DNA of 64,000 bases from Candidatus Falkowbacteria bacterium (lineage in GTDB: Bacteria; Patescibacteriota; Patescibacteriia; UBA11705; JABHMO01): contig JABHAL010000001.1 in the NCBI GenBank assembly GCA_018674305.1, positions 68,635 to 132,634 on the forward strand. The letters are read 5' to 3'. Below are positions 54,440 to 60,994 of the stretch, piece after piece (the stretch's first letter is position 1; each line of letters begins with the position of its first letter). Below the pieces are notes generated by a model. That model saw nothing but the letters and a program-made list of their open reading frames with translations. It was not told where the DNA came from and did no database searches. The translations under genes and the position numbers were made by a program.

Positions 54440-57400
54440 TTACTGAGGACAAATGTTGTCCAGGAGAATCACCTCTCCTTCAGGATCAGGATCTTCAGGA
54501 TCAACCTGGCCTTCCACAGCTTCGAATGTTACAGGTGTACCGTCCTGATCAACGCACCAAAGTACGCCATCAGTTTCCCAGCCACCCCATTCATTGCCAT
54601 TCTGACAGTTCCAGTCGATCCACCCATCCTCTTCATAACCCTGAACAGGATATTCTCCGCGCAGACAAATCTGCTGGATTGTTCCAGACCAGACACCACA
54701 ATAACCTTCCGCCGACCAAGTGTCCACGGGGATACCTCCCGACCAAACCACAGGATGGCCAAGTCCGTAACCACAACAGATATTACAGTAGATTGTCGGA
54801 CAATCTTCGTCGATGTCACCATCGCAATCGTCATCTACCCCGTTGCAAACTTCGTCTGCCCCAGGATAAACGTCTGCGTCGCCGTCATCGCAATCATCAT
54901 CACATAGCATAAAGCCATCTGCATCTGCATCTGCTTCGTTAGCCGGAACCTCAGTGTCGCAGTCATCATCAAGCCCATTGCACAATTCCTCAATCGGCTC
55001 AACATTGCCTACGCAAGCACCCCAGGTACCGTCATTCTCACAGGTCTGCAGACCTTGCTGGCATACGCCGTCTTCAGTTGTTCCACAGATTGCCAGATCA
55101 TCAGGATCGCAATCGCAATCCTCATCAGCACTACCATCACAATCATTGTCCAAATTATCACCACAGACTTCTGCCACAGACTGATCTGCGCTGCCATCAG
55201 GATTAGTGGAACAAATGGTTAAAGCTTCATCAGCACACTCCCAGGAACCAAGGCCACAAGTGCCCGTTCCTACACAAGGAGCGCCAATAAAGAAACCTTC
55301 ATCCACACTACCATCGCAGTCATCGTCCAGTCCGTTGCAAACTTCGTCTGCACTAGTATTAATAGAAGCTGCATCGTCGTTGCAGTCTCCTGCGCAAACA
55401 CGCTCACCATCACCATCATCGTCTGCCTCGTCAAGCGGGACAGCTCCGTTGCAATTGTCATCCAGACCATTGCACTCTTCAGGCTTAGGTTCAACGTTGC
55501 CCACACAATCACCCCAGAGACCCTGCGCAGAACAAGTCTGCTCACCATAATCACATTCACCTTCATCGGTGGTACCGCACTGCTCAGTGTCATCGGGCGT
55601 GCATTCACAGCCCTCATTAACTGAACTGTCACAGTCATTATCCACCAGGTCATTGCAATCTTCAGGTGAAGACTGATCTTCGCTACCTCCGGGCATAGTA
55701 GAACATTGATAACCAAAGTCGTTGGCACATTCATAAACGCCAGCTCCGCAAGCTCCATACCCGAGGCATGGCACACCCACGTAATAACCTTCGTCTACTG
55801 CACCATCACAGTTATCATCCTGGCCATTGCACAGCTCGTCTGCTCCAGAATTAACTGCCGGATCACCATCCGAACAGTCCCCTTCACAAACCATTTCACC
55901 GTCAGCATCGGAATCTACTTCGTCCTGATCCACTGCGCCATCGCAGTCATCATCAAGTCCGTTGCAGGCTTCTTCAGTTGCAGGTTCCACGTTACCAACG
56001 CAATCGCTCCAACTACCATCATTTTCACAAAAACTTTCCCCGTACTGACACACACCAACATCGGTTGTGCCACAGGACATAGTCGCTCCGGGTTCGCAAT
56101 CACACTCATCGTCAAGTGTGTCTACCATTCCGTCGCAGTCATTGTCCAAGTTGTCTCCACAAACTTCAGGTACTGAAGCATCTTCACTGCCACCAACGGC
56201 AACAGAGCAAATTACTCCCGTTCCATCTTGATTGCACTCGAGAACACCTGAGCCACATTCACCAGCCGCAAGGCATTCGAATCCAACAGGGAAACTCTCA
56301 TCAATCAGGCCGTCACAGTCATTGTCCTCGCCATCACACACTTCGGCAGGAGCATCACCGCACTGGCCACAATCATTCAGAAGCCCTTCGTCGACCTCGC
56401 CATCGCAGTCATTGTCTTCACCATCACACACTTCGGCAGGAACATCACCACACTGGCCACAAGCATTCAGAAGATCTTCATCAACTTCGCCATCGCAGTT
56501 ATTATCGACTCCGTCACAAACCTCGTCACTCGGCGCAACTGCCCCCTGGCAGTCATTCCAAGTTCCATCAGCCTGACAAGTCTGTACACCAAACTGGCAT
56601 ACGCCTTCATCCGAAGTACCACACTGCTTGGTCATATCAGGATCACAAGCACAGACATCATCGAGCGTATCAACCTGCCCGTTACAATCGTTATCAAGAT
56701 TGTCCCCACACACCTCAGGCGCTGAAGCATCTTCACTTCCACCAGGTGCTGAAGAACAAATAACGCTTGCTTCGTCAGCAGTACACTCATATGTACCTGC
56801 TCCACATTCTCCAAGAGCCAGACAGCCAACTCCAAGCGGGAAGTTTTCATCAATCAACCCGTCGCAGTCATTGTCCAACCCGTCACAAAGTTCATCCATT
56901 GAATCGCCAGGCACAACGTTACAAACTGCCAGTCCCTCTGAACAAACAAAGGTCCCTTCAGTTTCACACTCACCCTGACCGACTGAACAAACTTCACCTA
57001 GATTAAGATAATCTTCATCGACCTCGCCGTCGCAGTCATTGTCCTCGCCATCACACACTTCGGCAGGAACATCACCACACTGGCCACAGGCATTCAAAAG
57101 ACCTTCATCAACTTCACCGTCGCAGTTATTGTCAGAGCCGTCACAAACTTCGTCACCAGGTTCAACTGCACCAACGCAATCTCCCCAAGTGCCCTCAGCC
57201 TGACAAGTCTGAACTCCGAATTGACAAACGCCTTCATCCGAAGAACCGCACTGCTTCGTCATACCTGGGTCACAAGTACATACATCATCGAGCGTATCAA
57301 CTTGTCCGTTACAGTCGTTATCCAGATTGTCCCCGCACACCTCAGGCGCTGAAGCATCTTCGCTTCCGCCAGGTGCCGAAGAACAAATAACGTCTACACC

Positions 57401-60400: not shown

Positions 60401-60994
60401 AGGATGATAGGCAGGAGTTAAATCATTGCAATCACCGTCGCAAACGCGGTAACCGTCATTATCCTGATCAGCTTCAACATCAGGAATCTGACCATCACAG
60501 TCATCGTCCAATCCGTTACAAGCTTCTTCAGGAACATCACCACAGCCACCACAGTTATTGAGCACACCCTCATCAGTTTCGCCATCACAGTCATTATCTA
60601 CTGTGTCACAAACTTCAGCAGGTACCTCACCGCACTGGCCGCAAGCATTCTTCACACCTTCGTCAATCTCACCGTCGCAGTCATTATCCTTGTAATCGCA
60701 AACCTCAGCCGTAGCTGAGCAGGTCGGAGTACTGGGATCAGTTACGCCACTCCCATCAGGGTCATAAGCGCAGTAACCGCCAACACCTTCCACAACCTGA
60801 CAAAGCCAACCACCACCATGACCTGCCTCAAAGCAGTCCTCATTAGTGGTGCACTTAGTCTTGCACTCGCCATCAACTGAAACCTGGGCCTCAGCACAGT
60901 TGTCACCATCATCTGCGGTTCCGTTATCTCCGCTACAAGCAGAAAACACAGAAACCAACGCCAACGCTACCATTGCTACGAAAAGATTCCTCAT
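54440..60994 (-). CDS. giant secreted/lipoprotein-like Cys- and Asp-rich protein with >40 MopE-type CxG(L/V/I)DDDCDG putative metal-binding repeats; start at MRNLFVAMVALAL preceded by GGAGGTG
   Basis: Signal/lipobox FSAC; reiterated C(N/D)GxDD(D/N)CDGxxDE modules; about 2184 aa; G+C-rich. Confidence 0.7.
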   Translation of the reverse strand: MRNLFVAMVALALVSVFSACSGDNGTADDGDNCAEAQVSVDGECKTKCTTNEDCFEAGHGGGWLCQVVEGVGGYCAYDPDGSGVTDPSTPTCSATAEVCDYKDNDCDGEIDEGVKNACGQCGEVPAEVCDTVDNDCDGETDEGVLNNCGGCGDVPEEACNGLDDDCDGQIPDVEADQDNDGYRVCDGDCNDLTPAYHPGAEELCDGLDNDCDGLVPADEADEDGDGWRICDNDCNDTDAGVNPAMPEICNAIDDDCNGEVNEGFFVGAPCEGVGACGTGMLECYSDTATICSTMPGGSDEQSIFELCSDNLDNDCDGSVDEGCSCDEADWQICGSSVEGVCQLGWQECQAGGTWGECEGSVEPIPEECNGLDDDCDTEVPETEIDQDGDGMAECAGDCDEANATTYLNAPELCNGVDDDCDGDVDEDFFVNVPCVGLGACSAGTYQCDGEGTYLCSTMPNGADDMSLDEVCSDLIDNDCDGSVDEGCECDSEEDDVVKKCGMTDEGVCQIGEQTCGDDSLWGECVDSVNPGPELCNGLDDDCDGAVPDDEADADEDEFRICDGDTDDTNAAVNPAADEVCNGIDDNCDGSVDEGFFVGAPCNGVGACGMGQLECLDENSTVCSTDVGGSLDESLAEVCGDNTDNDCDGLVDQDCACDPGDIQVCGSSSVGICMTGWQTCLDDGTWGDCVGNVEPLPEEMCNGLDDNCDDEIPLDESDADEDGVRICEGDCNDADPMINPNVGESCNGLDDNCDGSVDEGFFVGAPCNGMGGCGAGTLECNADGSGTVCSSDPEGSENASVAEDCGDNVDNDCDGSVDEGCSCDPGDEEQCGSSDVGLCKFGMRDCLPDGTWDDCIGNVEPGIDVCDGADNDCDGETDEDYINLGELCSAGQGECETEGTFVCSEGLEVCSAVPSDPVNEVCDDLDNDCDGLVDENFPLGVGCLALGECGSGTYECTADLAGVICSSAPGGSEDASIPEVCGDNMDNDCNGQVDTLDDVCACDPGMTKQCGTSDEGVCQFGVQTCQADGTWGDCIDAIEPGDEVCDGFDNNCNGEVDEGLLNACGQCGDVPAEVCDGEDNNCDGEVDEDLLNACGECGPLPEEVCDGADNDCDGEVDEDFVNLGMPCSDGVGECEVAGTFVCSVDGQEVCSAEALEPTDELCDNLDNNCDGMIDENFPIGIDCLALGECGLGTYECTADGVDVICSSAPGGSEDASAPEVCGDNLDNDCNGQVDTLDDVCTCDPGMTKQCGSSDEGVCQFGVQTCQAEGTWGDCVGAVEPGDEVCDGSDNNCDGEVDEGLLNACGQCGDVPAEVCDGEDNDCDGEVDEDYLNLGEVCSVGQGECETEGTFVCSEGLAVCNVVPGDSMDELCDGLDNDCDGLIDENFPLGVGCLALGECGAGTYECTADEASVICSSAPGGSEDASAPEVCGDNLDNDCNGQVDTLDDVCACDPDMTKQCGTSDEGVCQFGVQTCQADGTWNDCQGAVAPSDEVCDGVDNNCDGEVDEDLLNACGQCGDVPAEVCDGEDNDCDGEVDEGLLNDCGQCGDAPAEVCDGEDNDCDGLIDESFPVGFECLAAGECGSGVLECNQDGTGVICSVAVGGSEDASVPEVCGDNLDNDCDGMVDTLDDECDCEPGATMSCGTTDVGVCQYGESFCENDGSWSDCVGNVEPATEEACNGLDDDCDGAVDQDEVDSDADGEMVCEGDCSDGDPAVNSGADELCNGQDDNCDGAVDEGYYVGVPCLGYGACGAGVYECANDFGYQCSTMPGGSEDQSSPEDCNDLVDNDCDSSVNEGCECTPDDTEQCGTTDEGECDYGEQTCSAQGLWGDCVGNVEPKPEECNGLDDNCNGAVPLDEADDDGDGERVCAGDCNDDAASINTSADEVCNGLDDDCDGSVDEGFFIGAPCVGTGTCGLGSWECADEALTICSTNPDGSADQSVAEVCGDNLDNDCDGSADEDCDCDPDDLAICGTTEDGVCQQGLQTCENDGTWGACVGNVEPIEELCNGLDDDCDTEVPANEADADADGFMLCDDDCDDGDADVYPGADEVCNGVDDDCDGDIDEDCPTIYCNICCGYGLGHPVVWSGGIPVDTWSAEGYCGVWSGTIQQICLRGEYPVQGYEEDGWIDWNCQNGNEWGGWETDGVLWCVDQDGTPVTFEAVEGQVDPEDPDPEGEVILLDNICPQ
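56150..58400. repeat. three ~0.72-kb near-identical tandem super-repeats inside the giant gene (each ~240 aa)
   Basis: Recurring nucleotide blocks e.g. cggcaggaacatcacc(a/g)cactg(g/a)ccaca at ~56434, ~57061, ~57781; protein copies ...CLALGECGxGTYECTAD..GVCQFGVQTCQA.. Confidence 0.55.

Follow-up and report, generated by a model that had tools for sequence, protein, structure and literature searches.

Thousands of proteins are built from repeats of the Pfam family PF11617 (Cu-binding_MopE), and few proteins of Myxococcota and related bacteria are larger. In MopE, a methanotroph protein that carries the motif, the Cu(I) site consists of His132, His203 and a kynurenine (PMC3423442), and CorA shares this site (PMC3912023). 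The first 46 residues of MopE* are invisible in the crystal, and the first 24, which lie near or overlap the motif, have been implicated in weak Cu(II) binding on immobilized metal affinity chromatography columns (PMC3423442). Extracellular calcium-binding proteins offer a second point of comparison. At least twelve unrelated families, thrombospondin among them, bind Ca2+ through the pattern Dx[DN]xDG (PMC3123361). The C-rich core of teneurin has been noted to resemble PF11617 (PMC3278476), and in its crystal structure the teneurin C-rich domain (38 residues, six Cys) holds three Ca2+ and three disulfides, the ions being coordinated in the manner of thrombospondin T3 and LDL-A modules (PMC9058538). 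Here, we describe a PF11617 protein of 2,184 residues (hereafter the giant protein) encoded on the minus strand of a 64,000-nucleotide stretch of Candidatus Falkowbacteria DNA (contig JABHAL010000001.1; the whole stretch is called the window). We lean towards the interpretation that it is a tethered stalk, in which a lipid anchor would carry a spacer stiffened by Ca2+ and disulfides and, at its end, a working C-terminal domain. The protein itself is already in databases as a hypothetical protein; what is new here is how its family is defined, its host among the Patescibacteria and the island of G+C-rich genes for secreted proteins to which it belongs.

Results

The minus strand from 54440 to 61060 is one unbroken open reading frame (ORF), which gives 2,206 residues from its first ATG and 2,184 when started at the ATG at 60994 (MRNLF), where GGAGGT and a 6-nt spacer precede the start codon. 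Public gene callers picked longer starts (2,202 or 2,206 residues). In every orthologue, the extra N-terminal residues contain 'GG(E/V)V/A-M', a translated Shine-Dalgarno sequence, followed by a basic n-region, a hydrophobic core and a Cys. As the gene-finder extensions contain this translated Shine-Dalgarno sequence, the start at 60994, already chosen in an earlier reading of the DNA made from its letters alone (the original prediction), is the likely one. From this start the leader reads MRNLFVAMVALALVSVFSAC and ends in a lipobox-like Cys (...VFSA, then C at residue 20), and the Cys stands in the same place in the orthologues P0002 to P0005, in P0008 and in the orthologue at locus L007. Its conservation in all orthologues upholds the lipoprotein-like leader that had been proposed, and the giant protein is likely a secreted protein of the lipoprotein type. 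Asp makes up 16.8% of the residues, Gly 13.9%, Cys 10.8% (236 residues) and Glu 9.5%; with 575 acidic residues against 19 Lys plus Arg and 3 His (Lys, Arg and His together about 1%), the isoelectric point is about 4.

PF11617 matched the giant protein at E = 3e-156 (507.6 bits over 25 stretches, the gathering score being 27 bits), and single units of its two super-repeat types, A and B, scored 42 and 76 bits. The core C-x-G-x-D-[DN]-[DN]-C-D-G recurs along the chain, with 42 sites by the pattern D[DNE][DN]C[DNT] and 39 by a stricter one. Together, the family match and the 39-42 core motifs confirm the MopE-type CxDxDCDG modules that had been recognized from the letters. The Ca-loop pattern Dx[DN]xDG occurs 36 times, compared with 2.0 +/- 1.3 (maximum 6) in 1,000 composition-preserving shuffles, and 29 of these loops have a Cys at position 4. 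The core D-x-[DN]-C-D-G fits the canonical Dx[DN]xDG calcium loop, and the sequence therefore points to calcium as the predicted ligand. The domain search suggested in the original prediction thus found its putative metal-binding motif, although the thrombospondin part of the suggestion failed, as TSP_3 (PF02412) gave no Pfam match with the whole protein at E <= 0.01 or with single units at E <= 1. PF11617 was the only Pfam family; EGF, hEGF, Notch and Ldl_recept_a matched neither the whole protein nor single units. In NCBIfam, no family matched the giant protein or the Cys-rich protein encoded upstream of it, and the Pfam and NCBIfam scans found no S-layer, SLH or cell-wall-binding domain.

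The motifs are organized into super-repeats (Table 1). Three tandem blocks of 0.72 kb, near-identical at the nucleotide level, had been predicted in the middle of the gene. The three blocks exist (B1 to B3), but they are not all of that length, the middle unit being 30 residues shorter (start-to-start spacings of 627 and 720 nt), and their DNA identity is too low for near-identical copies. The six type A super-repeats (residues 157-862 and 1675-2002), which had gone unremarked, are 53-65% identical in amino acid sequence; the type A unit has three MopE motifs and two Cys modules that form beta-hairpins, and 18 of its residues are Cys. From the N-terminal short modules onwards, the numbers of Cys per unit are 4, 4, 22, 18, 18, 28, 24, 28, 14, 18, 18 and 6, all even, with 17 in A3. 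Even counts fit the expectation for disulfides formed within units. A Ser/Thr-rich loop, CS[ST]xPGGSxDxS, was also seen at eight sites (e.g. residues 291, 964, 1204, 1413 and 1764), once per super-repeat; its sequence, together with the nearby Wzy_C gene, makes it a candidate O-glycosylation site.

The two ends of the protein behave differently from the array between them. The orthologues P0002 to P0005 have the lipobox, an N-terminal Cys-rich domain (N-domain) and a C-terminal Trp/Cys-rich domain (C-domain) in common, neither domain matching a Pfam family above threshold, and orthologue lengths range from 1,453 to 2,184 residues. Identity among orthologues is 62-70% in the C-domain, compared with 43-48% for the full proteins. 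A C-domain profile searched against 1.84 billion representative proteins gave nine matches, the domain being C-terminal in every case, and it was absent from the other 115 best MopE-type matches. Two architectures separate the parts most clearly. In P0128 (201 residues), a signal peptide is followed by the N-domain and the C-domain with no repeats at all, and its N-domain shares with that of the giant protein a pattern of six invariant Cys, not counting those of the lipobox and the boundary. P0124 (1,098 residues) also ends in the C-domain, which is joined there to Cys-rich repeats of another kind ('FDL.SD..NCG.CG..C'). On account of these two proteins, the end domains can be regarded as the constant parts and the repeat array as a variable spacer of 0 to about 2,000 residues. 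A polymorphic toxin, with a C-terminal toxin on a repeat stalk, was also considered and is ruled out, since the C-domain is the most conserved and not the most variable part.

The locus was drawn from public assemblies through the neighbouring radical S-adenosylmethionine (SAM) protein. The 6,609-nt giant gene was the same, with 0-1 mismatch, in at least four independent assemblies from different samples (SPAdes and MEGAHIT), and the assembly collapse of which the original prediction had warned is therefore unlikely. Repeats of this kind can break assemblies, since one contig (L013) stops inside the gene; collapse was not seen. The central array does vary, as had been anticipated. In P0002, from a related strain (locus L006), the aligned part is about 90% identical and residues 1165-1556 (392 residues, or about 1.6 B units) are missing, which is probably natural copy-number variation, short of proof at the 5x coverage of that contig. 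Comparison of this strain with the giant gene gave a synonymous divergence (dS) of 0.64 and a ratio of nonsynonymous to synonymous divergence (dN/dS) of 0.09 overall. By region, the ratio is 0.03 for the C-domain, 0.07-0.12 for the repeats and 0.25 for the N-domain, and purifying selection acts on the protein throughout. In the orthologue from a groundwater Falkowbacteria metagenome-assembled genome (L007, 5063-9374), the frame changes at about 7050, within the repeats, and the C-domain continues in another frame, which is either an assembly error or a sign of a pseudogene.

Searches of the Protein Data Bank (PDB) with the whole protein (phmmer) and with a profile of 37 unit sequences gave a single sequence match, residues 4-44 of MopE* (2vov), and a single module gave nothing at E <= 10 by phmmer. 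The domain that holds the Cu(I) site (MopE* residues 47-336, a beta-sandwich) had no counterpart in the giant protein in the PDB searches, and there are only three His in 2,184 residues. Because the similarity sits in the crystal-invisible segment of MopE and the copper site lies elsewhere, the 'Cu-binding' of the Pfam name is not transferable. The motif itself is not resolved in any solved structure. Metal binding as in MopE had been proposed for the repeats; the PF11617 match stands and a calcium reading fits the 36 loops, but the link to MopE itself is weak and confined to residues 4-44. An AlphaFold2 model of the 164-residue unit A6 has a mean predicted local distance difference test score (pLDDT) of 86, and its first 60 residues, with two MopE motifs, reach 90-95. 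The model is mostly coil with two small hairpin sheets, the Ser-rich loop lies in the block of lowest confidence (pLDDT 59), and Foldseek gave no teneurin match for it.

The features of the locus are collected in Table 1. Since strong terminators bracket the giant gene and it has a promoter-like site of its own, it is probably monocistronic. A second promoter-like site precedes the radical-SAM gene.

Table 1. Features of the giant gene and its surroundings (positions in the window; residues of the 2,184-residue protein)
Feature	Position	Strand	Remarks
Neighbour upstream, the second Cys-rich lipoprotein, built from another type of repeat	61306..64000, beyond window	-	975-1,009 residues in related contigs; GC3 0.44; same G+C-rich island as giant gene
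Intrinsic terminator of upstream gene	61263..61297	-	16-bp stem then T-run; sets giant gene apart as own transcription unit
Promoter-like site TTGACA, 17 nt, TATATT, with TG	61184..61212	-	Consensus match only, 11/12 positions
Start codon and signal peptide with lipobox (residues 1-20), MRNLFVAMVALALVSVFSA then C	60935..60994	-	Cys closes hydrophobic region, small residue at -1
N-terminal Cys-rich domain (residues 21-96)	60707..60934	-	Family-specific; from alignment
Two 30-residue short modules (residues 97-156), MopE motif and CGxCG hairpin	60527..60706	-	4 Cys each
Type A super-repeats A1-A4 (residues 157-862)	58409..60526	-	About 164 residues each, A1 209 residues
Type B super-repeats B1-B3 (residues 863-1550)	56345-58408	-	239, 210 and 239 residues; 80-84% identical, DNA and protein
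Partial fourth B unit (residues 1551-1674)	55973..56344	-	65-66% identical to B1-B3
Type A super-repeats A5-A6 (residues 1675-2002)	54989..55972	-	From repeat comparison
Last pair of full 30-residue PF11617 motifs (residues 2003-2063)	54806..54988	-	From motif pattern
C-terminal 121-residue Trp/Cys-rich domain (residues 2064-2184)	54443..54805	-	Most conserved part; no known family
Intrinsic terminator of giant gene	54399..54427	-	13-bp stem then T-run; begins 13 nt past stop codon (54440-54442)
Downstream neighbours: radical SAM, Wzy_C, methyltransferase, GT4, GT4, GHL15/FG-GAP	46755..54323	-	Apparently not the same transcript; GC3 0.28-0.31, the genome background

The giant gene has a G+C content of 0.50, compared with about 0.36 in the rest of the window (37% in other coding sequence), and, as had been surmised, this is partly forced by its amino acids. 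Re-encoding the protein with the window's own codon usage predicts 45% G+C, and the 13.5-point excess divides into 8.2 points from amino acid composition (about 61%) and 5.3 points from synonymous choice (39%). G+C at third codon positions (GC3) is 0.40, where 0.27 is expected (background standard deviation 0.04; about 3.4 standard deviations). The further claim that GAC, GGC and GTC are preferred over their AT-ending synonyms did not hold. GAC, TGC, GGC and AAC are about twice as common as in the window's other genes yet remain minority codons (GAT 0.60 vs GAC 0.40; GGT 0.44 vs GGC 0.27), and GTC has a share of 0.09 in the giant gene and in the other genes alike. CAG, AAG, TTC and CTG/CTT are strongly shifted, and the upstream Cys-rich gene shows the same shifts. 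A comparison with housekeeping genes, also proposed in the original prediction, showed that these do not prefer C-ending codons (DnaK, LepA, MreB, DnaJ and GrpE use GAC at 0.19 and TGC at 0.05), and translational selection was rejected as the source of the bias.

The same composition extends beyond the giant gene. In L006, the genes upstream of it have GC3 values of 0.41-0.56 and all encode secreted or lipoprotein repeat proteins, and GC3 falls to 0.28 exactly at the radical-SAM gene; in the more distant L004, five consecutive genes, one of them collagen-like, have GC3 of 0.55-0.79 between flanks of 0.27-0.39. The giant gene is the last member of this island of at least 12 kb (L006 1-11975; L004 3930-15556; a JGI 3300072015 contig), whose products are GDA-repeat, PAEEVA-repeat, collagen-like and Cys-rich proteins (779-1,009 residues), all of the secreted or lipoprotein repeat type, and whose boundary is sharp, at the terminator ahead of the radical-SAM gene. 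Composition suggests, as the simplest reading, that the block is an old, horizontally acquired island of surface-protein genes that has ameliorated to differing degrees; biased gene conversion among the repeats could be an alternative source of the synonymous G+C excess. Scans of the window for tRNA and Rfam families found nothing, and hence no island boundary marked by a tRNA. Another small islet rich in G+C lies at 32381-33631 (+), with two adjacent ORFs (182 and 229 residues) on the opposite strand to their neighbours; GC3 is 0.54-0.56 against a background of about 0.28, the leader of the first ORF is of the lipoprotein type (...LVGLSGC), and Pfam matched neither ORF.

Otherwise the chromosome in the window is ordinary (PilM, RecJ, LepA, MurJ, ADP-forming acetyl-CoA synthetase, MreB, CysRS, DnaJ and hrcA-grpE-dnaK). 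The named relatives of its LepA, at 63-84% identity, are Candidatus Falkowbacteria, Kuenenbacteria, Parcubacteria and Patescibacteria, by which the host is a Falkowbacteria-like member of the Patescibacteria. A 100% match to the giant protein (P0001) is labelled Candidatus Falkowbacteria, as is L007, where the orthologue has the same neighbours. The gene order, from the Cys-rich lipoprotein through the giant MopE protein to radical SAM, Wzy_C, methyltransferase, GT4, GT4 and GHL15/FG-GAP, is kept where the giant protein is 46-48% identical, and L004, L005, L006 and L007 share the downstream order. The pairing with a second Cys-rich gene beside a glycosylation and radical-SAM cluster, noted in the original prediction, is thus a conserved arrangement. 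That the pair might be glycosylated fared less well. The neighbourhood is conserved, but the transcription unit and codon usage of the giant gene set it apart from the glycan cluster; as terminators and a promoter-like site intervene and composition groups the gene with the upstream secreted-protein genes, it is the conserved neighbourhood that carries the link. Co-transcription with the radical-SAM and glycan genes is unlikely, given the terminator with its 13-bp stem and the new promoter-like site between them.

The radical-SAM protein (53313-54323, -) fell below all NCBIfam cut-offs, its best match, the PTO1314 family, reaching 75 bits where the cut-off is 306, and twitch-domain radical-SAM models coming next; it was considered as a maturase of the Cys-rich protein, for which the weak, sub-threshold similarity to many radical-SAM families is no evidence. 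The upstream protein contains about 13% Cys, in the repeat C-x-[DS]-D-x-D-C-x-D-x-[ND]-x-C-T-x-D-x-C-x-x-G-x-C, and its sole Pfam match was a sub-threshold one to Dicty_CTDC. Between its C-terminal 'CKFHCPEGMLYAVIWYGN' and the beginning of the giant C-domain the alignment is weak (hhalign E = 0.059, probability 1%), and a C-domain shared with this neighbour, or with P0008 (E = 0.0015, probability 17%), was not established. Further along, seven consecutive ORFs of 211-424 residues (40675-46457, -) share an N-terminal head of about 75-100 residues that is 60-89% identical ('...ANFTEVQQ..FDRLMSELE.IS.GLGFAELKAKAEAG.KEALQVMRDYVAKKEQIV'; no Pfam or NCBIfam match) and then diverge. Similar tandem paralogues follow the glycan cluster in L005, and the constant head and variable tail are reminiscent of diversified effector or immunity arrays.

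Discussion

The constant ends, the variable array and the purifying selection on the whole protein favour a tethered stalk, and a mechanism can be proposed. Judging from the conserved lipobox, the protein would be exported by Sec and lipidated at Cys20, so that its N-terminus would be tethered to the membrane. The following ~2,040 residues, in which about 40 MopE-type motifs (each a Dx[DN]xDG loop with Cys at position 4) are interleaved with beta-hairpin Cys modules, may fold, by analogy with thrombospondin type-3 repeats, LDL-receptor A modules and the teneurin C-rich domain, into a string of small knots, each loaded with Ca2+ and stapled by disulfides, in which regular secondary structure is nearly absent, and such a chain would be stiff, protease-resistant and strongly negative. 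This spacer would keep the 121-residue C-domain away from the cell, where the domain could bind a ligand on a host cell or envelope, possibly a glycan. Spacer length would be set by gain and loss of the 164-residue and 210-240-residue super-repeats through recombination between them. The gene belongs to a G+C-rich island that encodes secreted proteins (collagen-like and Cys-rich); an ancestor of the lineage probably acquired it horizontally, and purifying selection has kept it since.

Several observations weigh against the tethered stalk. Many Patescibacteria live without oxygen, and 118 extracellular disulfides may be hard to form and keep under such conditions. The mature protein carries an odd number of Cys (235). 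The A6 model, which carries no ions, has a predicted template modelling score of 0.57, compatible with a rod as well as with a compact shape, and the disulfides and calcium sites are putative; Foldseek found no significant PDB match for this model (best E = 0.58), and no solved structure matches the unit by profile, save the disordered N-terminus of MopE*. AlphaFold2 on a four-sequence alignment of the C-domain gave a pLDDT of 40, which is unusable. The best ungapped identity to the published 23-residue teneurin core is 13 of 23, marginal against a shuffle maximum of 12 and no more than a lead. In L005, GC3 of the giant gene is only 0.28 and the synonymous G+C excess is gone, so that horizontal transfer would require uneven amelioration between lineages. 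Finally, searches of the literature turned up no functional study of PF11617 repeat proteins; in full text they met neither 'MopE-related' nor 'PF11617', and 'Cu-binding_MopE' only as a motif comparison in a paper on teneurins (PMC3278476).

An S-layer or adhesin role had been suggested from the start, and for either one we infer a function from architecture. That the stalk is specifically an adhesin to a host cell we hold with less confidence than the overall stalk picture. More tentatively still, and though we think it unlikely, ultra-small and probably episymbiotic Patescibacteria may have taken the island from a high-G+C, MopE-rich lineage such as Myxococcota, with a lipid-anchored, calcium-stiffened stalk, perhaps ~100 nm long, whose Trp/Cys tip would attach to the host and whose length would be tuned between strains.

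A component of the envelope or matrix is the rival that survives best, though we regard it as unlikely. Here, the neighbouring Cys-rich and collagen-like proteins would form with many copies of the giant protein a Ca2+-bridged, possibly O-glycosylated acidic layer for which Wzy_C and GT4 would supply glycan. The radical-SAM, Wzy_C, methyltransferase, two GT4 and GHL15 neighbourhood is kept in all relatives examined, and the island also codes for collagen-like and other secreted repeat proteins. Wzy_C is also a domain of protein O-oligosaccharyltransferases (PglL/PilO), and the CS[ST]xPGGSxDxS loop of the eight units lies, as expected of an exposed segment, in the lowest-confidence block of the model. 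However, terminators and a separate promoter-like site isolate the giant gene from the glycan cluster, codon usage parts the two sharply, and the domain scans gave nothing that would hold an S-layer or bind a cell wall. A lipid anchor and a highly conserved distal domain also suit a tethered stalk better than a lattice.

Handling of extracellular metals, with the Cys/Asp arrays capturing or buffering copper, zinc or other metals, is improbable. In its favour are the strong PF11617 match, the 236 Cys and 575 acidic residues, and the weak Cu(II) binding in which the first 24 residues of MopE* were implicated (PMC3423442). The homology, however, is limited to MopE* residues 4-44, the beta-sandwich domain in which two His and a kynurenine form the high-affinity Cu(I) site is without a counterpart here (PMC3423442, PMC3912023), and the protein has only three His. 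Structural disulfides agree with the even Cys counts and with the confidence of the predicted fold, the acidic loops conform to the Ca2+ pattern, and no copper-related genes lie within the neighbourhood examined. That the array is an assembly artefact or a decaying pseudogene is hardly credible: although one contig ends inside the gene, the L007 orthologue is frameshifted and the shorter P0002 contig has low coverage, the SPAdes and MEGAHIT assemblies agree, short reads can separate repeat copies that, as here, differ by 16-20%, and the frame stays open for 6.6 kb with dN/dS at 0.09 for a dS of 0.64.

The locus offers a compact and well-defined experimental family, with a lipobox, an N-domain, a variable spacer and a rare conserved C-domain, in a lineage whose lifestyle depends on cell-surface contact. 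Furthermore, the G+C-rich island stands out clearly in its AT-rich Patescibacteria genome and lends itself to the study of how reduced genomes gain surface proteins. If the tentative reading of a captured, host-attaching stalk is true, it would give a first function and a structural logic for the PF11617 class.

Of the described systems, MopE and CorA of methanotrophs (2vov) resemble the giant protein in being secreted or surface-associated and in one copy of the motif, at MopE* residues 4-44. They differ in the Cu(I) site and beta-sandwich, for which the giant protein has no counterpart, and the shared segment falls within the 46 residues that the crystal does not show (PMC3423442). Thrombospondin type-3 repeats, class A modules of the LDL receptor and the teneurin C-rich domain likewise consist of Asp-rich loops of the Dx[DN]xDG type pinned by disulfides, with little secondary structure, and are extracellular and tandem (PMC3123361, PMC9058538). 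Modules of the giant protein such as 'CGDNLDNDCDG' resemble the teneurin core 'CGDNLDNDGDG' (PMC3278476), a likeness at the level of the motif that may be convergent. The Cys spacing in these proteins is different, and no Pfam, PDB sequence or fold match connects them to the giant protein.

The PF11617 giants of Myxococcota, Bradymonadia and other bacteria contain tandem copies of the same 30-residue motif. At E <= 1e-10 the giant protein has more than 5,000 matches, mostly at 30-37% identity and often of 2,000-3,700 residues, and some also carry the 164-residue type A super-unit, once or twice per protein. They differ in that the other 115 best matches are without the 121-residue C-domain and in that the host here is a small-genome, low-G+C member of the Patescibacteria. 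Many of them add FG-GAP, peptidase S8, OmpA and other domains, whereas the giant protein has no added enzyme or adhesion domain. Giant bacterial stalk adhesins, of the Ca2+-stiffened RTX/Bap type or the fibrillar type with immunoglobulin (Ig) repeats, combine an anchor, a strain-variable spacer of tandem repeats and a distal binding domain. Although their repeats are Ig-like or beta-sandwich domains instead of Cys knots, and they are anchored by a C-terminal sortase or type 1 secretion retention module instead of an N-terminal lipid, we propose by analogy that the giant protein of these Falkowbacteria may follow the same logic.

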